Assembly: GCA_963755715.1 (NCBI GenBank)
Contig: CAVWLW010000065.1
Span: 5,766-69,765, forward strand
Reading direction: 5' to 3'
DNA: 64,000 nucleotides
Source: an uncultured delta proteobacterium
GTDB lineage: Bacteria; Desulfobacterota; Binatia; UBA9968
The position numbers and the translations under genes were made by a program. A model generated the notes under the pieces. It was not told the DNA's origin and did no database searches. It worked only from the letters and a program-made list of their open reading frames with translations. How positions within the stretch are numbered: position 1 is the stretch's first letter; every line of letters begins with the position of its first letter. This document shows, piece by piece, positions 5,117 to 57,946 of the stretch.

Positions 5117-8100
5117 TCAATGCATGCGCACAGAAACGACCTTGGAAACTCCAGGTTCCGCCATCGTAATGCCGTAAAGAACCTCAGCGGCCTGCATGGA
5201 TTTCTTGTTATGCGTTACCAAGACGAATTGCGAATGCTCACTCATCTCTTTGATTATCTCGATGAACCGATCGATATTGGCGTCGTCCAACGGCGCGTCG
5301 ACCTCATCGAGAAAGCAGAACGGACTCGGTTTGGTCAAGAAGATCGCGAACAACAGGCTTACCGCCGTCAGCGCTTTTTCACCGCCGGACAAGAGCGTGA
5401 TCGACTGAAGTTTTTTGCCGGGCGGCTGCACAACGATATCGACGCCGGTCTCGAGGTAGTCGTTATCATCGGTCAGCACCAGCTTGGCTTTGCCGCCGCG
5501 GAAAAGGCGCGGGAAGATCACCTCGAATTTTTCGTTGATCGCTTCGAAGCTTTCCTTGAAACGCAAGCGGCAAACCCGATTGAGCTTGACGATGGTCTGT
5601 TGCAAGTCGGCGATCGATTTTTCCAAGTCTTCTTTTTGACGGCTCATAAAGCCAAAGCGCTCGGTGAGCTCTTCATATTCGCCGATCGCCGCCAAATTGA
5701 CTTCGCCCATTCGCTCGAGGCGGCCGCGCAGATCGTCGATCTGTTCCGTCAAATCGGCTTGTGAAAGGGTGTCATCGGCTGATTCGATCGATAGCGTTTC
5801 AAGCGCGACATCGTATTTTTCCCGCAGGTTGGCGGCCAGGTGCTGCAGCTCGAGCTGCTGTTTCGCCAGCGCCAGTTGGATGCGGTTCTTGTCTTCCTGG
5901 CAAGCTTCGCCGCGCGGCCGGAGCTCTTTGATGGCCTCGCCGATCTCGGCCAGTTGCAAAGAAACTTTCCGGTAGCTCTGGCGGTCTGTCTGAAGCTGCG
6001 CTTCGAGAGCTTGAAGTTCCGTTCGCCGGCGTCCGAGGGCTTCTTCGGTGTTCGCCATTTCTTGCTCGAGGTCGCGCCGGCGCTGGTGAAACTCGGCGAT
6101 ACGTCCTTGACGCGCTGCGATTTCCTGGGCGGTCTCTTCCTGAAGCTTTAGTCGATTGGCCAGGTTCGTGTGCGTATTCTCTTTTTTCTCGCCGAGGGCT
6201 GCGTGGCGTATGCGCGACTGGGTCACCGCTGCTTCGGCGGCTTCGACGGTCTGGTGAAGCTCGCTGAAGGTCGTCTGTTTTTGTGTGAGGCCGCGCTCCC
6301 GTTCCGTCTTCTCCTCGATCCGTGTTTGCATGTTGCTGTAACAGCGTTGAATTTCCTCGTCGAGCAAATGGACCGCTGTCGTCAGATCGGTTTGCTCCTG
6401 AGTGAAGGCTTGCATGGATTGGGTGATCCGCTCGCACTCGCGCTCCGCGGAACTCTTTTCGAGCTCGAGCCGCACGCGCTCGATTTCGAGGCGATGGCTC
6501 TCGGCGGTCAGTAAAGTTTTCTGGGTCTCAGCCTGCTCGAGTTCTTGTTTGAGCTGCGCGCTTTCCTGTTCTTCTTGGGGCAGCCGAGTTTCGAGGGCAG
6601 CGAGATTTTGGCTCAGATCGCGGATGCGACGGCGCTGCGCTAGAAAGCTCGCTTCGAGCGGCGCGCCGCTGCCGCCGGTCACGATACCCATCGGATCGAT
6701 GACTTCGCCTTCGGCGGTTACGAGAGTGCTGTAGTAGCCGTTACGGTTCCACAGCGATAATCCGGCTTGCAGATCGCGCACCACGACGACGTCGGAGAGA
6801 AGATACTCGGCGACATCGTGATAACCTTCTTTGACTGAAATCACGTCCATCATCGGCGCGATCACTTCGGCTTCGCCGAGCGGCAGCTCTTTGTGCGTTT
6901 TGCGCGACAACTCGAGCGGGATGAAGCTACTGCGTCCCGACGCTTGATGCTTTAAATACTCGATGGCTTCGACGCCATCCTGGTGACCTTTCACGATGAC
7001 GCACTGCAACCGATCGCCTAAAACCGCGGTGAGCGCCTTCTCGTAGTGCTCGGGCGCCTCGATGACTTCGGCGACCAAACCATAAATGCCGTTGGGCGAA
7101 GCCGCCTGCTGCTTTTTCAGCATGATCGCTCGCACGCCTTCCTGGCAACCTTCATAGTTCCTTTGGATATCTTCCAAGGACGCCAAGCGCGAGCGATTTT
7201 CCTGGAGGTGTTCTTTGAGGCAGGCGATCTTTTTTTCTTTTTCGTCGAGAGCGCCGCCCAGGGACTGGATCGAGGCGGTCGCGAGCGCGATTTCGAACGA
7301 GCGCTCGCGAATTTTTTCGAGACAACTTGCCAGCAAGTTTCCGGTTTCGCTGATCTTGGTCTCGCATGCAGCCAACAGCGCCGTGGTTTGAGTCAGTTCC
7401 ACACGGCTTCGCGCCAATTCGTTGCCGATCTCGCCGCGCCGTTTTTCCTTGCTCAGGGCATCGTTTTTAAAATTTGCGATCTGATTGGCGGCGTCGATTA
7501 GAGATTCTTTTTCGCGCTCCAGTGCGCTTTGCAATGAGCGGATCTGCTCTTGGAGGCTTTCCAGTTCGCTTTCCTTGTCGCATAAAAATGTTTCCTCAAA
7601 CAGCGACAATTGGATAAAGCTCTCTTTGGCCTTCTCGAGCTCCTCGATTTCCAGGACGACCGTCTTGGTTCTTTCTTCGAGCTGCAAAAGCGAAGCGCGG
7701 GTTTCGTCTTCGCTCTGATCCAATTGAGCCAAGTCTTTTCTGAAAAAGTCGCACTTCTGCTCGTCGGTTTGAATCTCGGTGCGGCGCTGGTAAAGGGTTT
7801 CTTGCTGCAGGCCGATTTGCTTGTCCGCTTCCAGGAGCGCCAGGCGCACCGATTCGTTTTCCGCTTCCTTGGCGTGCAACGCGGCGAGGATTTCCGCCCA
7901 TTGATTCTCGACGCTAGCCAGTTGCGCTTGCTGTCGGCTGATATCCTGATGAAAAGCTTCCCGCTGGAGAAAAGTGAAGGCAAGGTCCTTTTCTTTAAGC
8001 TCCGATTTCAACGCACGATAACGCTCGGCCTTCTTGGCTTGCAGTTCCATCGAGCGGATTTGGCGCTCGATCTCGCGCACGATGTCGGTGACTCGAAGCA

Positions 8101-33099: not shown

Positions 33100-34431
33100 C
33101 TAGCGTGCCGCCTGGGTTCGGCCGATTTTCTGGCAATTTTCCAATTCCCGGAGTTTTTTTGTTAGAAACGTTTGTTCCGACTCGATCGTGACCAGCTCCA
33201 GGGCTTGACGAAAATAATTGGCCGCAGCCTCGCGATTGTCCAGACGCGTTTCGAACTCACCCAGAGTCGCATAGAGCAGATAATAAGAGTTCAACTGCTC
33301 CCGTTTGTGGATCGCTTCGATCGCTTCGATGCCGGTTCGCGGACCGTGAACGGCGGCCACGGCCACGGCGCGATTGAGCGCCACCACGGGAGAATCGTCG
33401 ATCTCGATCAAGCGGTCGTAGAGCGACAGGATACGCGGCCAATCCGTGGATTCGTAATCCTGCGCCGCGCAGTGGCAGGCGGTGATGGCGGCTTGAAGAT
33501 GATACTCGCTGGCTTCGTCGCCGGCGGTAGATTGCATCAGGTGATAGAAGCCGCGCGCGATCAACGACTGATCCCATTGTGAGCGGTTCTGCTCCTCGAG
33601 GCGAAGAATGTTTCCTTCGGCGTCCACTCGCGCCGGCAGGCGCGCGCCGTTCAAGAGCATCAGCGCCAGGAGCGCGTGCGAACGCGGTTGATTACCCGCG
33701 GGGTGTTCGGCTACCAACGCTGTCAGCCGTATCGCTTCATGACAAAGTTCGGCCCGGATCAAATGCTCGCCGCCTGAAGCTTTGTAACCTTCGTTGAAAA
33801 GTAGGTAAAGCGTTTGCAGCACGCCGTCCAAGCGCCGGGTCAGTTCTTCCCCGCTAGGAATTTCGAAAGCAATGCGCGCGTCACGGATTTTTTGCTTCGC
33901 CCGCGTCAACCGCTTGGCGATCGCCGCTTCAGAGGTGAGAAACGCCCGCGCGATTTCTCCGGGACTGAAACCGCAAAGGGTTTTGAGCGCGAGCGCGACC
34001 TGCATCTCCTGCGGAATGAGCGAATGGCAACACGTAAACATCATGCGCAAGCGGTCGTCTTTGATTTGATTTTCGGCAGTCGTGGAGCCTTCGTCGGTGG
34101 CGTCTTCGGAGACTTGCTCCATTAAGTGGGCGATTTCGGCTTCCTTGTTGCGGAAAACTTTATCGCGCCGGATGAGATCGAGGGCCAGATTTTTTGCCAC
34201 CTGGGTGATCCAAGCGGAAGGATTTCTCGGGATGCCGTAGTAGGGCCAAGTCTGTAACGCCCGCGCCAACGTTTCTTGCACCACGTCCTCGGCACGGTTC
34301 AGGTGCTCGATTCCGAAAATCCGCGTCAAGGTCGAGATTATCTTTCCCGCCTCGTGACGGAAAAAATGCTCCACCACCTGAGTAACTTCCCCAGGTGGCG
34401 CAACCGGAGCCGTGGTTTCAGAAATCGTCAT
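33100..34431 (-). CDS. ECF sigma factor with C-terminal TPR-like extension (COG4941 / ECF42-type), sigma-1
   Basis: 443 aa. Region 2 (AEDVVQETLARALQTWP...NPSAWITQVAKNLALD). MFTCCHSLIPQEMQVALALKTLCGFSPGEIARAF region 4. About 230-aa helical C-terminal extension. Paralogue of 54798-56072. Confidence 0.85.
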   Translation of the reverse strand: MTISETTAPVAPPGEVTQVVEHFFRHEAGKIISTLTRIFGIEHLNRAEDVVQETLARALQTWPYYGIPRNPSAWITQVAKNLALDLIRRDKVFRNKEAEIAHLMEQVSEDATDEGSTTAENQIKDDRLRMMFTCCHSLIPQEMQVALALKTLCGFSPGEIARAFLTSEAAIAKRLTRAKQKIRDARIAFEIPSGEELTRRLDGVLQTLYLLFNEGYKASGGEHLIRAELCHEAIRLTALVAEHPAGNQPRSHALLALMLLNGARLPARVDAEGNILRLEEQNRSQWDQSLIARGFYHLMQSTAGDEASEYHLQAAITACHCAAQDYESTDWPRILSLYDRLIEIDDSPVVALNRAVAVAAVHGPRTGIEAIEAIHKREQLNSYYLLYATLGEFETRLDNREAAANYFRQALELVTIESEQTFLTKKLRELENCQKIGRTQAAR

Positions 34432-34695: not shown

Positions 34696-35103
34696 TTATG
34701 CGCTTGCCCGCGCCGGTTGCGCGTTGCTCGGGCTCAGCGCTAGCGGACATTCAGGAGCGACGGGTCGCACTTCCACCGACGCGCCGTAGTTCAGGCCGGG
34801 AAAGTTCTTGGCAATCTCCGTGGCTTCGTCCAAACTGCCGACTTCCAGCAAGAAAAAGCCGCCGATCGCTTCCTTGGATTCGGCAAACGGACCGTCAGCG
34901 ACTGAGCGACCCTTCTTCTGGGAAACAACTTTGCCCTCTGGAAAGAGAGGTTTGCCGACTTTGGCCTTGCCCTCTGCGGTCAAGCGGTCAAGCCAGGCGT
35001 ACATTTGTTTCACAACCTCCTGAATCTCTTCCGGGGAAAGGCCCTTGTGCCAATCTGTGCCACGGAATAGCAAGATGTATTCTGATTTTGCCGGTGCGCT
35101 CAT
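34696..35103 (-). CDS. YCII-related (DGPF) domain protein
   Basis: 135 aa. YILLFRG...ADGPFAESKEAIGGFFLLEV..LDEATEIAKNFPG. Confidence 0.85.
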   Translation of the reverse strand: MSAPAKSEYILLFRGTDWHKGLSPEEIQEVVKQMYAWLDRLTAEGKAKVGKPLFPEGKVVSQKKGRSVADGPFAESKEAIGGFFLLEVGSLDEATEIAKNFPGLNYGASVEVRPVAPECPLALSPSNAQPARASA

Positions 35104-35147: not shown

Positions 35148-35177
35148 TACGACGAACGGGCAAGCGGCTGCAGGACA
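35148..35177 (-). promoter_or_regulatory. ECF-type promoter candidate A1 (TGTCCT-N17-CGTCGTA)
   Basis: Minus-strand read: GTGTCCTGCAGCCGCTTGCCCGTTCGTCGTATTG. The -10 lies 45 nt upstream of the YCII ATG at 35103, heading the YCII-remnant-sigma-1 operon. Confidence 0.6.
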
Positions 35178-44258: not shown

Positions 44259-44288
44259 TACGACGAATGAGCGCGTGGCTCCGGGACA
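44259..44288 (-). promoter_or_regulatory. ECF-type promoter candidate A2 (TGTCCC-N17-CGTCGTA)
   Basis: Minus-strand read: GGTGTCCCGGAGCCACGCGCTCATTCGTCGTATTAATGAAAC. The -10 lies 68 nt upstream of ATG 44191. Confidence 0.6.
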
Positions 44289-46757: not shown

Positions 46758-46787
46758 TACGACGGATGAGCAAAACATTTCAGGACA
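46758..46787 (-). promoter_or_regulatory. ECF-type promoter candidate A3 (TGTCCT-N17-CGTCGTA)
   Basis: Minus-strand read: ATTGTCCTGAAATGTTTTGCTCATCCGTCGTACTG. The -10 lies 145 nt upstream of the DUF899 ATG at 46613. Confidence 0.55.
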
Positions 46788-48247: not shown

Positions 48248-48697
48248 CTAGTTTCCTTTGAAGCCACTGCGCAGTGGAATGAGCGCGCGCAACCGGTCAT
48301 CGCGCACGTAAAGCCCGCCCCAAATCAGCACTGCGATATAGACTGGGAACAATGTGTGGCTGAAGAGCGGGCTTCCCACGCGCACATGCGTGGCGATGGC
48401 GCCGCCGAGATAGCCGGTTAGCAGAATCGCGCCGAGAATAGCCGTGCGCGGAATCATGTAAAGAACAGTGCAGGTAAGGAGGACGATTCCAAGACCGAGC
48501 AAGACGCTTTCGGGATAGCCGAGCTGAACGGTGCCCTCCACGACCGGTGCGGGTTTCACCAGTTTTCCGACGCCGTCTACGAGCAGGAACAGGGCAGGGA
48601 GACCGCTCATAATGCGTCCGGTCCAGAGCCTCCCCTTGGAGAGGGGCGTGGATTGAGCATCTGCTTGGCGGGCGTGCATTGTCGTAGTTGCTTCCAT
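48248..48697 (-). CDS. DoxX-like family membrane protein
   Basis: 149 aa, four TM segments. SGLPALFLLVDGVGKLVKP...LTGYLGGAIATHVRVG. Confidence 0.7.
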   Translation of the reverse strand: MEATTTMHARQADAQSTPLSKGRLWTGRIMSGLPALFLLVDGVGKLVKPAPVVEGTVQLGYPESVLLGLGIVLLTCTVLYMIPRTAILGAILLTGYLGGAIATHVRVGSPLFSHTLFPVYIAVLIWGGLYVRDDRLRALIPLRSGFKGN

Positions 48698-48826: not shown

Positions 48827-48856
48827 TACGACGAGCGAAATGAGCTCTTCAGGACA
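48827..48856 (-). promoter_or_regulatory. ECF-type promoter candidate A6 (TGTCCT-N17-CGTCGTA)
   Basis: Minus-strand read: GAGATGTCCTGAAGAGCTCATTTCGCTCGTCGTAGAATTG. The -10 lies 130 nt upstream of ATG 48697. Confidence 0.55.
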
Positions 48857-49305: not shown

Positions 49306-49602
49306 CTAGCCGCCGGCGATTGCCCCCACGATCATAAAGGGCTCGGCGCCACTCGCGACAGCCTGGGGCAGCGGCGCGTCCGGCGCTTCGTGGGAGAGAT
49401 CTTCCCCGCACGCGAAAAATCGCACGAATGCTCGGCGTTTTTTCGTGGTGTGGTCGCGGATCGTGCCGCGCAACATCGGATAACGAGCCTCGAGCGCGTC
49501 GAGCACCGAACGCTGCGTGACCTCACCCTCGACGTCGAGCTTCACCTCGCCGTCGACTTGCGCGAGCTTGCGCAGATGTGCTGGGAGCGTGACACGGATC
49601 AT
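49306..49602 (-). CDS. MoaD/ThiS-family ubiquitin-like small protein ending in Gly-Gly
   Basis: 98 aa from ATG 49602 ([26 protein letters not shown]...[10 protein letters not shown]). ATGA overlap with the upstream gene stop. Confidence 0.7.
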
Positions 49603-50786
49603 GGCAGCGTCTGGACCTCGACGGACACCACGGCCGGAAGATCGCGGACAATGGGCGCCCAGTTGTCGCCCGCGTCGGCGGATGCATACACCTGCCCGCC
49701 GGTCGTGCCGAAGTACACGCCGCACTTATCGAGCGAGTCGACGGCCATGGCGTCGCGCAGCACGTTGACATAGCAGTCGCTCTGCGGCAGGCCTTTGGTG
49801 AGCGCTTCCCACTCGTTGCCGCCAGATCGGCTGCGGTACACGCGGAGCTTGCCGTCGGGCGGAAAATGTTCCGAGTCGCTCTTGATCGGCACGACGTAGA
49901 TGGTCTCCGGCTCATGCGCATGAACGTCGATCGCGAAGCCGAAGTCGGTCGGCAGATTGCCGCTGATCTCATGCCACGACTCGCCGGCATCGTCGCTGCG
50001 CATGACGTCCCAGTGCTTCTGCATGAACAGCACGTCCGGGCGCGAGCGATGCATCGCGATGCGATGAACGCAGTGGCCGATCTCCGCGGTCGGATCAGGG
50101 ATATAGAGTGAATGCAGGCCGCGGTTGATCGGCTGCCAAGTCTTGCCGCCGTCATCGGTGCGAAACGTGCCAGCCGAAGAGATGGCGACGAACATTCGTT
50201 CCTGGTTACTTGGATCGAGAAGGATGGTGTGCAGGCACATTCCTCCGGCGCCCGGCGCCACATTGTCACCTGAACCGTGGCCTCGCAGGCCGGCGAGCTC
50301 GCGCCACGATTTGCCACCGTCGGTGGAGCGGAACAGGGCAGCGTCTTCGACGCCGGCGTAAACCGTGTCGGGATCAGTCAGCGACGGTTCGAGATGCCAG
50401 ACGCGCTTGAACTCCCACGGATGCGCCGTGCCGTCGTACCATTGGTGCGTGGTGAGCGGCTTGCCCGTTTCGGCGGATGTATCGTAAACAAACTTGTTGC
50501 TCTCGCCCTTGGGCGTGCCGTCCGGGGCGGTGGTCGGTTCGCCTGGCGGCGTTCCCGGTTGGTGCCATGTCTTTCCGCCATCATCTGAGCGTTGAATGAT
50601 CTGCCCAAACCAGCTGCTGGACTGCGACGCATACAACCGGTTCGGATCCGCTGGAGATCCCTTGAGGTGATACATCTCCCAGCCGGCAAAGTGGGGGCTG
50701 CTGACCTCCCATTTTTCACGCTTTCCGTCCGACGTGAGAATAAATGCGCCTTTGCGCGTGCCTACCAATACTCGTACTCCGCTCAT
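49599..50786 (-). CDS. BNR/Asp-box repeat beta-propeller protein (sialidase/Ycf48-like fold, function unknown)
   Basis: 395 aa with six S-x-D-x-G-x-x-W type boxes: [54 protein letters not shown]. Confidence 0.8.
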
Positions 50787-50827
50787 GTCTTTCTCCTTAT
50801 TGATTGAGTTTCGCGCGCCGCGTTATT

Positions 50828-51301
50828 TTATTGTTGCTCGTTTGCTCTCTTCAGACTTGCGATGTCGAGCTTGTCCATTTGCAGCATGGCGTTCATAACT
50901 CGCTTCGATTTCTCGGCATCCTTGTCTTGCAGCAATTGACCCAGGACGGTCGGCACAATTTGCCACGACACGCCGAATTTATCTTTAAGCCAACCGCATC
51001 TCTGCTTTTCCCCGCCCTCGGAGAGCTTTTCCCAGAATTTATCGACCTCTTCCTGCGTCTCGCAATGCACGAAGAACGATATGGCCGGCGAGAAGGTGAA
51101 CATGGGACCGCCGTTCAATGCGATGAACTCTTGTCCCTGGAGTTCGAAGGTCGCGGACATGACCGATCCTTTCGGTCCGGGTCCTGCCTCGCCAGAGCGC
51201 ATCATGCTCACAATCTTTGAGTTTGGAAAGATGGAAGTGTAGAAGTTCGCGGCCTCTTCGGCTTTGCCATCGAACCACAAAAACGGTGTGATTTTTTGCA
51301 T
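50828..51301 (-). CDS. PhnB-like VOC family protein (3-demethylubiquinone-9 3-methyltransferase-domain type)
   Basis: 157 aa. [30 protein letters not shown]...[16 protein letters not shown]. Confidence 0.85.
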
Positions 51302-51324
51302 ATCGTTTTATTCCTATGCTGATT

Positions 51325-51735
51325 TCAAGGCGCAACCGTAACCATCCAGCCGACGCCGAAGCGATCTGCAACCATGCCGAAGCAGGGCGACCAGAAGGTT
51401 TTGCCGAGCGGCATTTGCACCTGCCCGCCTTCGGCCAGCGCGGCGAACTTTCGTTTCGCGTCGGCTTCATCAGCCGCCGTGAGCGATAATGAAAATCCCT
51501 GAAAATTTGTCCCTTCGCTGCAACCGTCGGAGGCCATCACATTAGCGTTGCCGATGCGCAAGGTCGCGTGCATGATCTTGTTCTCCCAGCCCGGCGGCAC
51601 CATCCCCGGCGGCGTGGGTTCCGGACTTTCTTTGTAACGCATCAGCATCAAAACCTCGGCGCCAAGCGCCTTTTTGTAAAACTCGATCGCCTCTTCGCAG
51701 CGGCCGTTAAAAAATAGATAGGGTTCGATAGCCAT
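51325..51735 (-). CDS. PhnB/YjdN-like VOC family protein
   Basis: 136 aa. PYLFFNGRCEEAIEFYKKALGAEV...IMHATLRIGNANVMASD...FGMVADRFGVGWMV. Confidence 0.85.
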   Translation of the reverse strand: MAIEPYLFFNGRCEEAIEFYKKALGAEVLMLMRYKESPEPTPPGMVPPGWENKIMHATLRIGNANVMASDGCSEGTNFQGFSLSLTAADEADAKRKFAALAEGGQVQMPLGKTFWSPCFGMVADRFGVGWMVTVAP

Positions 51736-51822
51736 AATCGCATCTCCTTTTTGTGGGTTGGTATTTCTTGATCGTTCTAATGGGTTTTTTAAACAGGCAC
51801 GACGCCGAGCGACATCGCTCGC

Positions 51823-52203
51823 TCACGGATTCTCGGCGGCATTGACCTTTGCGGTAGATTCCTCGTCGAGGGCGCGGATCTCGAAAGTCGCCACGCGAAT
51901 CCCCGGATGTTTCGACATCAATTCGGTTGCGTGATTTAGATCGATGGCATCGAGCAAGAGAACACCGCCGATTTGTTCCTTGGTTTCAGCGTATGGGCCG
52001 TCGGTGATGGATACCTTGCCATTCCGGTAGCGCAAAGTTCTCGCGTTTTGCGCATTTTGCAGCGCCTCCAGGCGAACGAAATGACCATTCCTTTTAAGGA
52101 CGTTGTCGTAAGCGAAACATTCCTTGATGAAGGTCTCACGCTCGCTATCAGACATGACGTCGAACTTTTGTTCATCTATGTGTGACAGACAAAGAAGCTT
52201 CAT
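51823..52203 (-). CDS. YCII-related (DGPF) domain protein
   Basis: ATG 52203 (MKLLCLSHIDEQ...). [20 protein letters not shown]. The longer ORF-track start (52269) would overlap promoter B2. Confidence 0.85.
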   Translation of the reverse strand: MKLLCLSHIDEQKFDVMSDSERETFIKECFAYDNVLKRNGHFVRLEALQNAQNARTLRYRNGKVSITDGPYAETKEQIGGVLLLDAIDLNHATELMSKHPGIRVATFEIRALDEESTAKVNAAENP

Positions 52204-52240
52204 AATCTTTTCCTTGCGGCATTTACCTACCGATATCCAG

Positions 52241-52268
52241 TAGTCGTTCAGCCGCCACGGAATCGACA
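52241..52268 (-). promoter_or_regulatory. ECF-type promoter candidate B2 (TGTCGA-N16-CGACTA)
   Basis: Minus-strand read: GATGTCGATTCCGTGGCGGCTGAACGACTACTGG. The -10 lies 38 nt upstream of ATG 52203. Confidence 0.55.
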
Positions 52269-52313
52269 TCCTAAACTAAAAATATTCGACCCAACGGCAG
52301 CTTTTACGGTAAT

Positions 52314-52670
52314 TCAGCACTCCAACTCGGCAATGCAACGCACTTCGACCGTGCCCCCCGCCGGAAGCGTCGGGATGCGCGCCGCGATCGACATCGCCTC
52401 GTTCAGATCCATGCAATCGATAAGGTGGTAGCCGCCGAGTTGCTCTTTGGTCTCGGCGAAGGGCCCATCGGTAAGTACTGTCCTGCCGTTCTTCATGCGC
52501 ACTGTCTTCGCTGACGGCGCCGGGTGGAGTTTTGCTCCGCCGCGGAAGTGGCCAGTGTCGACGAGATTCTGTACCCAATCTCCATAGTCCTGCATAATCT
52601 TGTCCTTCTGCGCGCCGGGTAAGTTGTTCCAGGCAGTCTCGTCGAAACAGCACATCAGCATATATTGCAT
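52314..52670 (-). CDS. YCII-related (DGPF) domain protein
   Basis: 118 aa. MQYMLMCCFDE...[21 protein letters not shown]. Confidence 0.88.
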   Translation of the reverse strand: MQYMLMCCFDETAWNNLPGAQKDKIMQDYGDWVQNLVDTGHFRGGAKLHPAPSAKTVRMKNGRTVLTDGPFAETKEQLGGYHLIDCMDLNEAMSIAARIPTLPAGGTVEVRCIAELEC

Positions 52671-52779
52671 AGTGATCTCTCCATTCTGAAACTCGGCAGT
52701 AGCAGAGCGGCATAAAGCTGCTTCTGCACAAACCCCAGATGATTTAGCTTACCGAGTGGCGAAACTTCCCGACATGGGT

Positions 52780-53658
52780 TCACGCTTCGAGCGGAATCCA
52801 AATCTCCATTCCGCCCATACCGGTTTTGGGATTGAACTCTTCGGTGTAGCGCTCGAAGCACGGGGCGCTCGCCACTTTGAGCCCCGCTTGGGGCACCCAC
52901 TCGTTCCATATTTTGTCGATAGTATTGCCGATGGCAGAGACATTGTCCGGGTGCGTGAAGACCGCATATTCGCGGGCGGGGAGTCGTACGGTCGCGAACT
53001 CAGCCGGGAGTCCCTTGGCGTCCTTCACTTCGACACCCGAGAGATACTCGAATCCACGCCCCGGCGATACGTTCCAACAAACGCCGTAGGAAACTTGACC
53101 CATCTGTCCGGGGACCTTGCCGATTTTCGGGGCAAACCGTTCCCATTGTGCGGGAATCTTGGCCCGGGTTTCGAACGTGTAGCTCTCGTTCAAACCGGCG
53201 ACAACGATCTCCTTGGCATGCTCAAAGCGGGGTGCTCCGAGCCCCAGCGCCTGGGCGCGAATGCTGGCTTCTTGCCTGCGCAGTTCCGGCGTAAACTCGG
53301 CGCCGAAATCTTCCGCCTCGAAAAGTGGGCGAATCTCGACCTCGCCATCCTCGTTGTACGGATTGGGGCAGCGCTTGACCCACTCGATCGCCTCTTCTTT
53401 GGACTTGCACTGCCATAGCCAGTAGCCGGCGATCAGTTCTTTGGTCTCGGCGAAGGGCCCGTCGATCACGGTGCGCTGGCCGCCGGAAAACCTGACACGC
53501 GCGGCTTTGGAGGTCGGATGCAGTCCCTCCCCAGCAAGCATCACGCCGGCTTTCACCAGCTCTTCATTGAATTGGCCCATCTCGGTGAGGAGTCGCTCGC
53601 TCGGCATCACGCCTGCTTCCGAGTCCTTAGTGGCCTTGACCAAGATCATGAATCGCAT
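52780..53658 (-). CDS. YCII (DGPF) domain fused to a GyrI-like/AraC-effector-binding-like domain
   Basis: 292 aa. N-terminal MRFMILVKAT...VIDGPFAETKELIAGYWLW...EIRPLFE. C-terminal half (IVVAGLNESYTFETRAKIPAQWERF...EYAVFTH...MEIWIPLE) has the GyrI-like SHS2 pattern. Confidence 0.75.
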   Translation of the reverse strand: MRFMILVKATKDSEAGVMPSERLLTEMGQFNEELVKAGVMLAGEGLHPTSKAARVRFSGGQRTVIDGPFAETKELIAGYWLWQCKSKEEAIEWVKRCPNPYNEDGEVEIRPLFEAEDFGAEFTPELRRQEASIRAQALGLGAPRFEHAKEIVVAGLNESYTFETRAKIPAQWERFAPKIGKVPGQMGQVSYGVCWNVSPGRGFEYLSGVEVKDAKGLPAEFATVRLPAREYAVFTHPDNVSAIGNTIDKIWNEWVPQAGLKVASAPCFERYTEEFNPKTGMGGMEIWIPLEA

Positions 53659-53729
53659 CGTCGTATCTCCTTCTGTCTTTTTGATCGGCCGCGCCGTGGC
53701 TCTGGGGTTAAATCACTGCTGATATTCCT

Positions 53730-53758
53730 TAGTCGATCGGCTCGGCGCAAAATCGACA
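53730..53758 (-). promoter_or_regulatory. ECF-type promoter candidate B3 (TGTCGA-N17-CGACTA)
   Basis: Minus-strand read: GCTGTCGATTTTGCGCCGAGCCGATCGACTAAGG. The -10 lies 72 nt upstream of ATG 53658, just after the stop of the upstream YCII gene. Confidence 0.55.
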
Positions 53759-53763
53759 GCCGT

Positions 53764-54150
53764 TCACTCTGCGCCGGGCGTGTTAAGTCCGAGCGCGAGC
53801 GTCTGCGCATCCTCCGCGATCGGCCGCACCTCGACGCAGCCGAAGCGCGCGCCCGGGATCTTGGCGGCTACCCGGATCGCCTCGTTCAGATCCCTGGCCT
53901 CGATGACGTAATAGCCGCCGAACTGCTCCTTGGTCTCGGCGAAAGGTCCGTCGGTTGTCGACACCTTGCCGTCGCGCACGCGGACAGTGATCGCCGTATC
54001 GGCGGGGGTCAGCCGATTGGCGCCGATAAAGTGACCGTTTCTTTTGATGTCGGCCGTGAACTCAGCGTACTCCTGGAAGTGCTGCTCCGCATCGGCCGGC
54101 GCCATTTGCTCCATCACGGTCTCGGCGCAGATCAGGCAAATGAATTTCAT
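53764..54150 (-). CDS. YCII-related (DGPF) domain protein
   Basis: 128 aa. MKFICLICAE...TTDGPFAETKEQFGGYYVIEA. Confidence 0.88.
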   Translation of the reverse strand: MKFICLICAETVMEQMAPADAEQHFQEYAEFTADIKRNGHFIGANRLTPADTAITVRVRDGKVSTTDGPFAETKEQFGGYYVIEARDLNEAIRVAAKIPGARFGCVEVRPIAEDAQTLALGLNTPGAE

Positions 54151-54304
54151 CTCGTCTCCTTTTTTTGTCGAACGGCGTCAATCAACCAACGACCCACAGC
54201 CCACGTCGCCGGCATTTCGTCGTGGCCCGAGGACTTAGGGATGTTCAGGCGCGCTGGGAGCATCAGGATGGTCACGTTGATCTGCGAGAACCGGGTTTCT
54301 CACA

Positions 54305-54697
54305 TCATTCGCCCTTTGAACGGCGCCGCTCACTCTCGTGGATCATTTCGGTCAAGTCCTCAGCCGGCCGAATCTCGAAGGGTCCTGCCTTCACACCTGG
54401 ATGCTTCGACATCAACTGGATGGCGTGGTTAAGGTCTTTGGCCTCGAGCACGAGGATCCCGCCCAACTGTTCTTTCGTCTCGGCATACGGGCCATCGGTG
54501 ATGGACACCTTGCCGTTCTTCCATCGCAGCGTGGTAGCGTTCCCAGCGCCTTGGAGCGCTTCTCCACCAACAAAGTGACCTTTTTTTCGCAGCACGTCGT
54601 CGTAGGCGAAGCACTCATCGACCATGGCGTTCCGCTCGGTTTCGGACATCGTTTCCCACTTCTTCTCTTCCATGTATCCAAGGCATACGTATTTCAT
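54305..54697 (-). CDS. YCII-related (DGPF) domain protein
   Basis: ATG 54697 after aggagg ([14 protein letters not shown]...). [21 protein letters not shown]. The ORF-track start 54733 would abut promoter B1. Confidence 0.85.
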
Positions 54698-54737
54698 AAT
54701 TTCCTCCTGATCGTATTTGATTGGTCGTTTCACCCTG

Positions 54738-54766
54738 TAGTCGTTCAGGCGAGCCCAGAATCGACA
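54738..54766 (-). promoter_or_regulatory. ECF-type promoter candidate B1 (TGTCGA-N17-CGACTA)
   Basis: Minus-strand read: GTTGTCGATTCTGGGCTCGCCTGAACGACTACAGGG. The -10 lies 41 nt upstream of ATG 54697, directly downstream of sigma-2. Confidence 0.6.
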
Positions 54767-54797
54767 ACGGGACTTTAGAAAAACTGCTTTCGCGGTC

Positions 54798-56072
54798 TCA
54801 GCCCGGCAGTTCGGCTAGACGCCGCTTCAGAAACCGCCGCTCCGGCTCCTGCTCCGTGAGGCTCAGCGCTCGTTCGTAGGAGGCTCGGGCTTCCGCGATT
54901 CGCCCCAACCGCCGGCAGAGATCCGCCCGCGCTGCATGGGCGAGGTGGTAGCCGGAAAGATCACCGCGTTCCAGGATCGCGTCGATCAGCGCAACTCCCT
55001 CAGACGGACCGTCGCGCATCGCCACCGCCACCGCCCGGTTCAGCTCGACCACGGGCGACGGCTCCGCCAGCGCTAGCAGGTCATAAAGCGCGACGATCTG
55101 GGTCCAGTCCGTGGCGGCGGCGTTGGCCGCATTAGCGTGCACGGCTGCGATCGCTCCTTGGACGGTGTATGGGCCAACCTGGTTTGCCGCCAGCGCCCGT
55201 TCCACCAGCGCTGAGCCCTCCGCGATCTGATCCCGGTTCCAAAGCGAGCGGTCCTGGTCGTTAAGCAGGATCAACTCCCCGCTCGACGATGTGCGCGCGG
55301 CGCGGCGCGAGTCGTGCAGCAGCATCAGCGCGAGCAGTCCCAGCGCTTCCGGCTCCGGCAGCAACTCCACAAGCAGCCGACCGAGGCTGATCGCCTCGCT
55401 TGAAAGATCGTGCCGCGTGAGTGCCGCACCGGATGACGCGGAATATCCCTCGTTGAACACGAGGTAGACGACCCGAAGCACGGCATCGAGTCGGTCCGGC
55501 AGCTCGGTCGCCGAGGGTACCTCGTAGGGAATGCGCGCGTTACGAATCTTTGCTTTGGCGCGGACGATGCGCTGCGCCACCGTGGCCGGCGATGAAAGAA
55601 ACGCGCGCGCAACCTCCTCCGTTGTCAGGCCGCAGACTTCGCGCAGCGTCATCGCCACTTGAGCGTCCGGCGACAGGGCTGGATGGCAGCAGGTGAAGAT
55701 GAGGCGCAGCCGATCGTCTTTGATGCTTTCGTCGTTCCACGCCTCGGGATCATCGGTGTCCGCCACGAGTCGCTTGTCGATATCGTCCGGCAACGGCGTG
55801 AATCGGCTGCGCCGGCGAATTGCGTCGATCGCCTTGAAACGGCCGGTCGACACGAGCCAGGCGCGTGGATTGGCGGGGACACCATCGCGCGGCCATTGCT
55901 CCAAAGCCGCCCTGAAAGCGTCGTGCAATGCCTCTTCGGCGATATCGAAGTCGCCGAGTAGGCGGATTAACGTGGCGAGGACGTGGCGCGAATCGGAGCG
56001 GTAGACGGCGTCCACCGTGTTGCGCGCGTGTTCAGGCGCGATGCCTAAGCCGGTTTGTGGGTCGCGATCCAT
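54798..56072 (-). CDS. ECF sigma factor with C-terminal TPR-like extension (COG4941 / ECF42-type), sigma-2
   Basis: ATG 56072 ([15 protein letters not shown]...). [17 protein letters not shown]...[50 protein letters not shown]. Long helical C-terminal extension. The ORF track extends to 56237. Confidence 0.85.
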
Positions 56073-56599
56073 AACATGTTGCCTCTCATTTAAGGTTAGC
56101 GTGGGGTAGCGACTCAGAGCGGAGAATCGCTTTGGCATTTTCCGCCCATCCGATCGCACTCTAAACTCTGCCAATTTTCTCGCAATCGGTGCCAAAATCA
56201 ATGAGGGAAAGTAAATTGGCGGCGAGGCGAGTCCCATGAAACGATAGAGGTCTTATCGAAGACAAACCAAACGGATTCGCAGCGCAACGATTTGAACGGC
56301 TGGAACGAATTAAACGACTGTTGTTTCAGCGCGCAACCAGCAACGTGGGATCTGCGCAGTGACCCGCCGATCCTCGGGTTCGGCGGCGCTTTCGAACACG
56401 ACTACCGATTTCCGCGCTCGGTGAGTAGATATTTATGAAAGTTAAAGCGCGGCGGCTTCCAGTCGTCGCCGCGAGTCAGGAAAGAGCCGGTTTGCGTTTC
56501 GCTGACGACCGAGGTCTTCGCAAACACGGAAACATGGTTGCCCTAGTAACCGGCAGAATCGCGCGATCTCCTGGTTCGATCCCGGCTCCTGGCCGCCGA

Positions 56600-57229
56600 T
56601 CACGGCTTGATGGCGGCGAAAGCTTCGGCGATGCGCGTCGGCGCATTTGGGCGGGCGTACATCCGCTTCATGTAGGTGAGCAGCTGCGGGCAATCGTCGA
56701 GCAACTGGTCCTCGTTGGCCCAGTCGAGCGTGTATGCCATCACAAAATCGGCGACCGTCACATTGTCGCCCACGATGAACTGCCGCCGTTGCATGTGCTC
56801 CTCTAACACAGATGCCATGGCCTTGAACTCCTGGCTGGCGGGGACCACGTCCGCCGGCAAGCGCTGCTCTTCCGGATACAGCATCGTGTTGCGAGCGATG
56901 CGCCAGAGCGGCTGCTCCAACTCCGTCGCCGCGAACAGAAGCCAGCGGTTGACCTGCGCCCGCTCCTTAAGGTCGGTGGGGATCAGGCCTTTGTTGGAAT
57001 ACTTGTCGGCCAAGTAGAGCACGATGGCCACAGACTCGGTCAACACGAGGTCGCCGTCGACGAGCACTGGAATTTTGCCTGCGGGATTGATCTTGAGAAA
57101 CTCGGGGCGCTGGTGCTCGCCGGCTAAGAGGTTGACGCGAATGGGTTCGAAATCCACGCCCAGCTCCTGGAGTGTCCAGCGCACGCGGATCGATCGGGTA
57201 GGGCCAAACTCGTATAGTTTCATCTTCAT
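56600..57229 (-). CDS. Glutathione S-transferase
   Basis: 209 aa. PEFLKINPAGKIPVLVDGDLVLTESVAIVLYLADKY. Confidence 0.85.
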   Translation of the reverse strand: MKMKLYEFGPTRSIRVRWTLQELGVDFEPIRVNLLAGEHQRPEFLKINPAGKIPVLVDGDLVLTESVAIVLYLADKYSNKGLIPTDLKERAQVNRWLLFAATELEQPLWRIARNTMLYPEEQRLPADVVPASQEFKAMASVLEEHMQRRQFIVGDNVTVADFVMAYTLDWANEDQLLDDCPQLLTYMKRMYARPNAPTRIAEAFAAIKP

Positions 57230-57297
57230 CGATACCTCCTTCTTCGGCCGCGCTTTGCGGCCGATCGCGATGTTTGAACCTAAGTTCTCGGCGAGCG

Positions 57298-57497
57298 CTA
57301 CGGCTTCAAGTCGATCGCGGCTTTGAAGCTGCCGTCCATGTAGAAGGGGACCGAGCTACGCTCATGTGTGATCGTCCACTTCCCGTCGATTTTACGGAAG
57401 CCGAGGGTCTCGCGAAACCACAAGTCCACGTTCTGTCCGTCTAGTCGTTGTTGCCATCAGCCACGTCATCTTCGATGGGTTTACTGGTTGCCGTCAT
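57298..57497 (-). pseudogene. Internally deleted remnant of an NTF2-like (SnoaL/DUF4440) gene
   Basis: MTATSKPIEDDVADGNND*, then in another frame DGQNVDLWFRETLGFRKIDGKWTITHERSSVPFYMDGSFKAAIDLKP*, a typical NTF2-like C-terminus. Keeps aggag RBS, ATG and promoter A4. Confidence 0.6.
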
Positions 57498-57533
57498 TTT
57501 TTCTCCTCTCTAGCTTTTGTCTCGTTTCATTAA

Positions 57534-57563
57534 TACGACGAACGAGAAAATACCCTCGGGACA
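57534..57563 (-). promoter_or_regulatory. ECF-type promoter candidate A4 (TGTCCC-N17-CGTCGTA)
   Basis: Minus-strand read: GATGTCCCGAGGGTATTTTCTCGTTCGTCGTATTAATGAAAC. The -10 lies 37 nt upstream of ATG 57497. The remnant and GST lie downstream. Confidence 0.6.
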
Positions 57564-57946
57564 TCATGCAGCGATTAAATTGTAAATCGCGTGCCAGTGC
57601 AAAGGCGGCAGCAAAAATAATTGCGACGTCGTTAGAAGCAAGTCCTGTATGGATTTTTATAATTGCTAATCGGAAAAATCCTTCAACTCAGCACTGCCAG
57701 TTTTTATTTTCCATCCTTTGGGGCGATGCGACGAGTTGAAAACTCCTTCATATTTAGTGTCTTCCAAATGACCTAAAAAATTCTAGGCTGTTGGCATATG
57801 CATTGCGGCTCTGCTGTCAGAAGATTTTCGGCCTTTCATCTGTGCGCAACCCCCAAGTAGTCACGTGTGTGATGATCCAAAGTAAACGGTGAATCGGTTG
57901 ATTAAACCGAAGGAAATGAAGATCTACAGAAAAGGAGGGCAAGACT

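Follow-up and report, generated by a model that had tools for sequence, protein, structure and literature searches.

TGTCGA/CGACTA sites in a YCII gene array as likely promoters read by the neighboring ECF42-type sigma factor in an uncultured soil bacterium

The DNA analyzed here, referred to as the window, is a 64-kb stretch of contig CAVWLW010000065.1 from an uncultured soil bacterium most closely related to a Binatia metagenome-assembled genome (MAG). Its minus strand carries a gene for an extracytoplasmic function (ECF) sigma factor, named sigma-2, followed by an array that includes five genes for YCII/DGPF proteins. A preliminary description of this DNA had pointed out that three spacers of the array contain a bipartite motif, TGTCGA and CGACTA separated by 16 or 17 nucleotides (nt), and had interpreted the motif as a second promoter variant of the region. 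The three sites, here treated as candidate promoters P2a, P2b and P2c with TGTCGA as -35 and CGACTA as -10 box, and the genes around them are as follows.

54798 to 56072, minus strand: sigma-2, a 424-aa ECF sigma factor with the architecture of the ECF42 group; according to the reading frame, ATG 56072 is the corrected start.
54738 to 54766, minus strand: candidate promoter P2a, TGTCGA-N17-CGACTA, in the 100 nt that separate the sigma-2 stop from the YCIIa start.
54305 to 54697, minus strand: YCIIa, 130 aa, DGPY type, Pfam YCII E value 2.7e-21, PDB entry 1s7i (P. aeruginosa PA1349) E value 4.9e-32; first gene behind P2a.
53764 to 54150, minus strand: YCIIb, 128 aa, DGPF type; without a motif of its own, presumably co-transcribed from P2a.
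53730 to 53758, minus strand: candidate promoter P2b, TGTCGA-N17-CGACTA, starting 5 nt past the YCIIb stop and ending 71 nt ahead of the YCII-GyrI-like fusion gene.
52780 to 53658, minus strand: fusion of YCII and GyrI-like/Cass2, 292 aa, with Pfam YCII and GyrI-like matches; first gene behind P2b.
52314 to 52670, minus strand: YCIIc, 118 aa, DGPF type; without a motif of its own, presumably co-transcribed from P2b.
52241 to 52268, minus strand: candidate promoter P2c, TGTCGA-N16-CGACTA, 37 nt ahead of the YCIId start at 52203.
51823 to 52203, minus strand: YCIId, 126 aa, DGPY type, 61% identical to YCIIa; first gene behind P2c.

All five YCII proteins of the array contain DGP[F/Y]AETKE and score 56-76 bits against the Pfam YCII model (cutoff 24). 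The literature yielded nothing usable on a link between PA1349 (1s7i) or PA1351 and ECF42. Sigma factors of the ECF42 group are defined by a ~200-residue TPR-containing C-terminal extension that is needed for activity, by the lack of an anti-sigma factor and by a conserved YCII neighbor (PMC8999054, PMC7826278, PMC9023288). The Pfam matches of sigma-2 are Sigma70_r2 (residues 25-91), Sigma70_r4_2 (126-177) and DUF6596 (195-294, E value 1e-37), with no region 3; its C-terminal TPR matches (378-422) fall below the gathering score, with E values from 6e-5 to 9e-4, and in NCBIfam the sigma70-ECF superfamily alone exceeds the cutoff. No anti-sigma domain was found in its immediate neighbors, a glutathione S-transferase (GST) gene upstream and a YCII gene downstream, which were the only ones examined. 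With its sigma2 and sigma4 core, long TPR extension, YCII neighbors and lack of an adjacent anti-sigma gene, sigma-2 displays every ECF42 feature that was checked and, judged by its sequence, is of the ECF42 type. A PDB sequence search with sigma-2 returned no ECF42 structure, only distant SigE/sigmaE chains.

A pattern scan of the window for TGTCGA-N16/17-CGACTA gave exactly three matches on the minus strand. The mean number expected by chance is 0.01, and none of 100 dinucleotide-preserving shuffles reached three. All three occupy spacers of the YCII array that directly follows sigma-2 and point the same way as the genes; their positions had been given correctly, apart from the trivial point that each quoted string was one 3' base too long. 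TGTCGA is separated from the CG of the -10 box by 17 nt in P2a and P2b and by 16 nt in P2c. The start codons at 54697, 53658 and 52203 are 40, 71 and 37 nt away from the final base of CGACTA, respectively. When up to two mismatches were allowed, 17 further matches appeared in the window, scattered and all within coding sequence (9.4 are expected from mononucleotide shuffles), and no additional candidate was detected in any intergenic position, nor before YCIIb, YCIIc or the VOC genes described below. The motif is thus indeed confined to the array, as had been claimed.

The sites also help to define the start codons. The preference of the preliminary description for short reading frames proved justified, since ATG 54697 and ATG 52203 are both preceded by a Shine-Dalgarno sequence and give N-termini that fit those of orthologues (MKYICLGY and similar). 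The start of the long open reading frame (ORF) at 54733 lies 5 nt past the -10 box, and that at 52269-52267 overlaps the -35 box. An Rfam scan of positions 50500-57700 at a permissive threshold gave two sub-threshold chance matches only, so no RNA element accounts for the spacers. No sigma70-like promoter was found between 50500 and 58000, where 2.5 are expected.

A scan of one genome per species provided 80 loci (876 kb) that encode sigma-2 orthologues of 65-91% identity. They are spread over about 16 phylum-level labels, with Candidatus Binatia MAGs as the closest; others are Methylomirabilota, Nitrospira/Nitrospirota, Gemmatimonadota, Acidobacteriota, Beta- and Gammaproteobacteria, Chloroflexota, Planctomycetota, Verrucomicrobiota, Bacteroidota, Cyanobacteria, Leptospiraceae and several candidate phyla, and cultured proteobacteria are represented by Pseudomonas carbonaria, Variovorax and Methylocaldum. 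In these loci the strict motif TGTCGA-N16/17-CGACTA occurs 77 times on the strand of the sigma gene and once on the opposite strand, distributed over 56 of the 80 loci, against an expectation of ~0.25 and a total of 0-2 in shuffled sequences. The relaxed form TGTCGA-N16/17-CGAC gave a strand ratio of 102:7, and TGTCGA paired with CGTC remained at background (4:6). Most relaxed matches are directly upstream of YCII homologues (63/109), with another five upstream of VOC/PhnB homologues, and the start codon, an ATG with a Shine-Dalgarno sequence in front, usually follows at 18-90 nt. The cross-phylum consensus is TGTCGATTT-N-CCG(A/T)(A/T)CGACTA; the class with a 16-nt spacer (32 sites) conforms to TGTCGATTT...ACGACTA, and in the 3' box, CGACTA, the T is present in 74-84% and the final A in 94-96%.

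We then carried out the check suggested in the preliminary description, namely whether the hexamers persist in orthologous spacers. The spacer between sigma-2 and YCIIa was aligned with five orthologous ones (loci L002, L003, L004, L067 and L073). The invariant columns are TGTCGATT, AACGACTA, GGAG and ATGAAATA, the last including the ATG, and the remainder has diverged; both boxes are therefore invariant among diverged spacers. The P2b-type motif precedes MRFM-type YCII orthologues in many loci (for example L002:10512, L009:1118, L014:11650 and L037:7358), and conservation of the two boxes in orthologous upstream regions was found for P2a, P2b and P2c alike. These results bear on the caveat, raised together with the original claim, that the similarity might be a by-product of tandem duplication of a YCII gene with its spacer, in which case the hexamers would be functionless. 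The 61% identity between YCIIa and YCIId agrees with such an origin, as does the presence of TGTCGATTC...CTGAACGACTAC in both P2a and P2c. However, the upstream regions of the three paralogous promoters do not align beyond the two boxes, the boxes stand out in orthologous spacers that have otherwise diverged, and they recur at 77:1 beside sigma-2 orthologues of many phyla, ahead of different gene families. Moreover, the extra shared flanks (TT after TGTCGA and GAA before CGACTA) turned out to belong to the cross-phylum consensus. The boxes-only footprint and the unalignable paralogous regions indicate that tandem duplication does not account for the similarity, and we consider this explanation extremely improbable.

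The strand bias bears likewise on the possibility that the sites are operators of a DNA-binding regulator. TGTCGA and (T)CGAC(A) are partial reverse complements, so that TGTCGA...TCGACA would be nearly palindromic, and a T precedes CGAC in about half of the sites with a 17-nt spacer. A symmetric operator, however, would match both strands, whereas the motif is strictly directed toward the downstream gene (77:1), and the 3' box is CGACTA, not CGACA. The bipartite layout, the spacing of 16-17 nt and the distance of 20-90 nt to start codons fit ECF promoters. As shown below, the motif also switches with the sigma paralogue, and the differences map to the sigma4 recognition helix. An operator is accordingly a very unlikely identity for these sites, though somewhat less so than a duplication remnant.

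Which sigma factor would read the sites could be addressed since the window encodes a second protein of this type, sigma-1, associated with the other promoter variant (variant 1).

33100 to 34431, minus strand: sigma-1, ECF42-type paralogue, 443 aa, 40% identical to sigma-2; downstream of the YCII gene at 34696-35103.
35151 to 35177, minus strand: candidate variant-1 promoter TGTCCT-N17-CGTCGTA, ahead of the YCII-sigma-1 pair.
57537 to 57563, 48830 to 48856, 46761 to 46787 and 44262 to 44288, minus strand: other variant-1 sites, TGTCCY-N17-CGTCGTA, found by scanning the window.

The Pfam architecture of sigma-1 is the same as that of sigma-2 except for the weak TPR matches. The five variant-1 sites of the window are located ahead of the YCII-sigma-1 pair, of one gene each for a DoxX, a DUF899 and a glyoxalase-like protein, and of an 18-codon ORF with the GST gene behind it. 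The earlier remark that the CG of the -10 box is equally spaced in both variants is correct insofar as N17 is shared with all five sites, P2c having 16 nt. A metagenome scan gave 80 loci (502 kb) with sigma-1 orthologues of 65-85% identity. In these, all 38 occurrences of TGTCCN-N16/17-CGTCGTA are on the strand of the sigma gene (38:0; 79:5 for a relaxed form), and TGTCGA-N16/17-CGACTA was absent from both strands (0:0). Conversely, variant 1 remained at background beside sigma-2 orthologues (1:3). This double dissociation across 160 loci is the chief evidence for assigning variant 2, TGTCGA/CGACTA, to sigma-2 and variant 1 to sigma-1. Together with the orthologous spacers and the 77:1 strand bias, the absence of the motif near sigma-1 orthologues supports the original view that this promoter variant is specific to the YCII array behind sigma-2.

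The same data argue against a single, cross-talking regulon in which the sites would be ECF promoters read by sigma-1 or by both paralogues. Such cross-talk would be compatible with the features common to both motifs (TGTC, spacing, CG in the -10 box), with the 40% identity of the two sigma factors, and with a sigma-1-type promoter ahead of the sigma-2 orthologue of locus L002 (see below), which links the two systems. It is at odds with the clean dissociation, with clade-specific substitutions at positions aligned with -35-contacting residues, and with the fact that most sigma-2 orthologue loci have their motif with no sigma-1 motif nearby. Although it is the least improbable of the three alternatives, we regard it as unlikely. 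Thus, P2a, P2b and P2c are very probably promoters read by RNA polymerase containing sigma-2, the ECF42-type sigma factor encoded immediately upstream. Each combines a TGTCG-type -35 box with a CGxC -10 box about 17 nt apart and has YCII or glyoxalase-like targets, the features by which ECF42-dependent promoters are recognized.

Several observations weigh against this assignment. Co-occurrence of the motif with the sigma clade is strong but indirect as to which sigma factor reads the sites. The -10 box in the window is CGAC, versus CGTC in the mapped promoters of Sinorhizobium meliloti and next to the Streptomyces plasmid homologue (see below). No TGTCGA/CGACTA promoter is present upstream of sigma-2 itself. 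Finally, the matching soil metatranscriptome contigs are fragmentary assemblies lacking 5' ends. These contigs, a few near-identical ones from metatranscriptomes X30 and X32, match the first VOC gene as well as YCIIa and YCIIb, including the greater part of the YCIIa-YCIIb spacer, and imply that these genes are expressed in nature. Two runs labeled 'GENOMIC RNA-Seq' (X25 and X26) were rejected as RNA evidence, as their coverage is DNA-like, with spacers and sigma gene covered alike.

To the three promoter-proximal groups of genes the following members of the array have to be added.

51325 to 51735, minus strand: VOC/glyoxalase-like gene, 136 aa, Pfam 3-dmu-9_3-mt/Glyoxalase; likely part of the P2c unit; the L001 orthologue is preceded by its own intact motif (L001:7876).
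50828 to 51301, minus strand: PhnB-like VOC gene, 157 aa, Pfam 3-dmu-9_3-mt E value 9e-51; probably in the P2c unit; orthologues with a motif in L014, L027, L035 and L074.
49599 to 50786, minus strand: BNR/Asp-box gene (sortilin/Ycf48-like, Pfam); ends the array; 86% identity at the same position in L001 and L004.

From the presence, statistics and conservation of the motif and its co-occurrence with the sigma clade we infer the following scheme of initiation sites, reading sigma factor, operon boundaries and response to an inducing signal. Active sigma-2 would direct RNA polymerase to P2a, P2b and P2c, with sigma4 reading the -35 box TGTCGA(TT) and sigma2 the -10 box CGACTA located 16-17 nt downstream; transcription would begin a few bases past CGACTA, and the YCII/DGPF and glyoxalase-like genes would be switched on. 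The unit behind P2a would consist of YCIIa and YCIIb (the latter 154 nt behind its upstream gene), that behind P2b of the YCII-GyrI fusion gene and YCIIc (109 nt behind), and that behind P2c of YCIId, the two VOC/PhnB-like genes and probably the BNR gene, which may thus belong to the sigma-2 regulon. Read-through between units would supplement each internal start. Of six terminator-like hairpins detected between 50500 and 58000, where 9 are expected, every one is on the plus strand; with none on the minus strand, nothing speaks against read-through. Sigma-1, in turn, would use TGTCCY-N17-CGTCGTA for a regulon of its own comprising the YCII-sigma-1 pair and the DoxX, DUF899 and glyoxalase genes, and the two regulons are probably insulated from each other within one genome.

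To locate residues that might account for the two motifs, the first ~200 residues of 79 sigma-2-type and 81 sigma-1-type proteins were aligned. The positions at which the two clades have different fixed residues are concentrated in sigma2 and in the sigma4 recognition helix. In the helix, T164, Q167, I169 and V170 of the sigma-2 clade correspond to A, K, L and T in the sigma-1 clade; in sigma2, F79 and K80 correspond to N and L. A HMMER alignment to Escherichia coli sigmaE pairs positions 164, 167, 169, 170 and 171 with T169, S172, I174, F175 and R176. In the structure of sigmaE4 bound to -35 DNA, S172 and F175 contact bases and R176 reads the conserved upstream G; across ECF sigma factors the residue at sigmaE position 172 correlates with the base at -34 (PMC1540707). 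R171, aligned with R176, is common to both clades, as is the TGTC half-box. The discriminating residues vary together with positions 5-6 of the -35 box, which fits a role as specificity determinants, as far as aligned sequences can tell. A broader proposal is that two ECF42 paralogues evolved mutually insulated codes, TGTCGA/CGACTA and TGTCCY/CGTCGTA, kept across many phyla, that the switch can be traced to T164A, Q167K, I169L, V170T, F79N and K80L, and that in some relatives the two are wired in series. We hold this proposal to be evenly poised between right and wrong; if true, it would amount to a natural pair of orthogonal ECF switches and would define how specificity for the TGTC-type -35 box is encoded.

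Some side observations concern connections between the two systems. Locus L002, whose sigma-2 orthologue is 88% identical, has a perfect sigma-1-type promoter, TGTCCTCAGAGCACTCGCTCATTCGTCGTA, at 5814-5843, ~157 nt upstream of the sigma-2 orthologue, a placement that suggests a cascade from sigma-1 to sigma-2. At the same spot the spacer is lost in L001 (about 5805-5830, TGTCCTGAGAGCGTCGTA), and the corresponding sequence in the window (about 56140-56175, minus strand) has decayed. Downstream of the variant-1 site at 57537-57563 there is the 18-codon ORF (57497-57441, MTATSKPIEDDVADGNND), next, at about 57430-57297, an apparent C-terminal remnant of an NTF2/SnoaL-like gene (...GKWTITHERSSVPFYMDGSFKAAIDLKP), and then the GST gene (57229-56600); sigma-2 follows 520 nt further on. 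As there is no terminator-like hairpin on the minus strand, read-through from this promoter into sigma-2 is possible. A short ORF, MTTTQINSTEDPSESVKKIW, also lies between the variant-1 site at 48830-48856 and the DoxX gene at 48697; a small leader ORF is thus found behind two of the five sigma-1-type promoters.

Other observations concern the layout of the sigma-2 module. Two arrangements were encountered. The first, motif-YCII-sigma, is a classical autoregulated operon with the motif near position 5500 of the locus (L010, L018, L033, L043, L045, L048, L050, L057 and L062); the second, sigma-motif-YCII, has the motif near 7250 (L002, L004 and many others). In the window the sigma gene comes first, as in the latter arrangement, and sigma-2 is therefore not visibly autoregulated. 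Even the closest relatives differ in how many YCII, VOC and BNR genes follow the sigma gene and in which order. The spacer ahead of the first VOC gene (51736-51822, minus strand) is TGTCGCTCGGCGTCGTGCCTGTTTAAAAA, and the orthologous gene in L001 has an intact TGTCGATTTGATCGAACCCTGTTCGACTA (L001:7876-7904); in the window, TGTCG and CCTGTT are still present with unchanged spacing but the -10 box is gone, and by this comparison the site may be a decayed fourth promoter. In Nitrospira (L014, L019, L021, L022, L035, L039 and L047) a motif of the 16-nt class repeatedly precedes a gene for a lysine-rich protein (MAKRPSTDKKTKK... and similar, ~130-146 aa) that resembles none of the array gene products and that we predict to be a lineage-specific regulon member.

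An identity of 65-91% among sigma-2 orthologues with about 16 phylum-level labels is far above what phylogenetic distance would lead one to expect, and suggests frequent horizontal transfer of the sigma-promoter-YCII module. A homologue of sigma-2 is present in 368 plasmid records, among them ones from Ralstonia, Klebsiella, Streptomyces and Escherichia. On the P. aeruginosa plasmid pMKPA34-2 (locus L161, NZ_MH547561.1, 8016-12860) a sigma gene whose product is 69.5% identical to sigma-2 is followed by a TGTCGA-N17-CGAC site, two YciI genes, a second site, an NTF2 gene, four VOC genes and a MATE gene. Such a sigma gene, with this promoter motif and a YciI/NTF2/VOC/MATE array, is carried by plasmids of clinical P. 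aeruginosa and Acinetobacter; the cassette is mobile. Two homologues on actinobacterial plasmids combine a helix of the sigma-2 type (AQRIVRAK) with a TGTCGA -35 box; in the Streptomyces case TGTCGA is paired with CGTC, ahead of a YciI-sigma operon. Which of TGTCGA/CGACTA and TGTCCY/CGTCGTA counts as the 'second variant' depends on perspective, as TGTCGA is also the -35 box of other ECF42-type sigma factors; with TGTCGA in the plasmid homologues and TGTCGG in S. meliloti RpoE10, the sigma-1 motif is the more deviant one.

In biological terms the module is a textbook-type local ECF42 regulon, and little about it is new, since control of neighboring DGPF/YCII genes by ECF42 sigma factors through a TGTCG-type promoter has already been described. 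The gain lies in part in annotation: the starts of two YCII genes and of sigma-2 are fixed, and three transcription units can be assigned to a defined candidate regulator. The self-contained sigma-promoter-YCII/VOC cassette ranges from soil MAGs to clinical Pseudomonas and Acinetobacter plasmids. A modest added value is the comparative evidence for distinct promoter codes in two ECF42 sub-clades, with candidate specificity residues, and such codes could serve as orthogonal genetic switches; the possible link between sigma-1 and sigma-2 in a close relative is the other element of some novelty.

Compared with known systems, sigma-2 most resembles the ECF42 group (SVEN_0747, SVEN_4377 and SVEN_7131 of Streptomyces venezuelae; ECF-10 of Pseudomonas putida), with which it shares sigma2 and sigma4, an extension of ~200-250 aa with TPR at its end, and a small local regulon. 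The lack of an anti-sigma gene and the conserved YCII neighbors of this group are displayed by sigma-1 as well as sigma-2. A difference is that in the window the YCII array follows the sigma gene, which has no such motif ahead of it. Liu, Pinto and Mascher reportedly gave the ECF42 motif in 2018 as TGTCGA / CG(A/T)C. As template for the reading of a -35 box by the recognition helix, region 4 of E. coli sigmaE on -35 DNA (PDB 2H27) is the structural reference, but sigmaE is a distant homologue (E value about 3e-4) that recognizes GGAACTT and has no C-terminal extension. According to a regulon-prediction study, ECF41 and ECF42 both act as local regulators, and their synteny is conserved (PMC7776599). 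ECF41 members such as S. meliloti RpoE9 likewise have a regulatory C-terminal extension, a local regulon and a promoter of the TGTC...CGTC type (TGTCACA...CGTC) (PMC6180224); their extension, however, is SnoaL-like rather than DUF6596 plus TPR, their -35 box is TGTCAC, and their neighbors are carboxymuconolactone decarboxylase or oxidoreductase genes, not YCII. Mapped counterparts are the promoters of S. meliloti RpoE10, an ECF42 member, which were start-mapped, are induced by RpoE10 and have the sequence TGTCGG-N17-CGTC; glyoxalase-like and ligand-binding proteins encoded beside a YCII gene are among their targets (PMC6180224). The sites in the window share with them the TGTCG core of the -35 box and the N17 spacing, and differ in having CGAC(TA) instead of CGTC as -10 box, A instead of G at position 6 of the -35 box, and three promoters within an array of five YCII genes.

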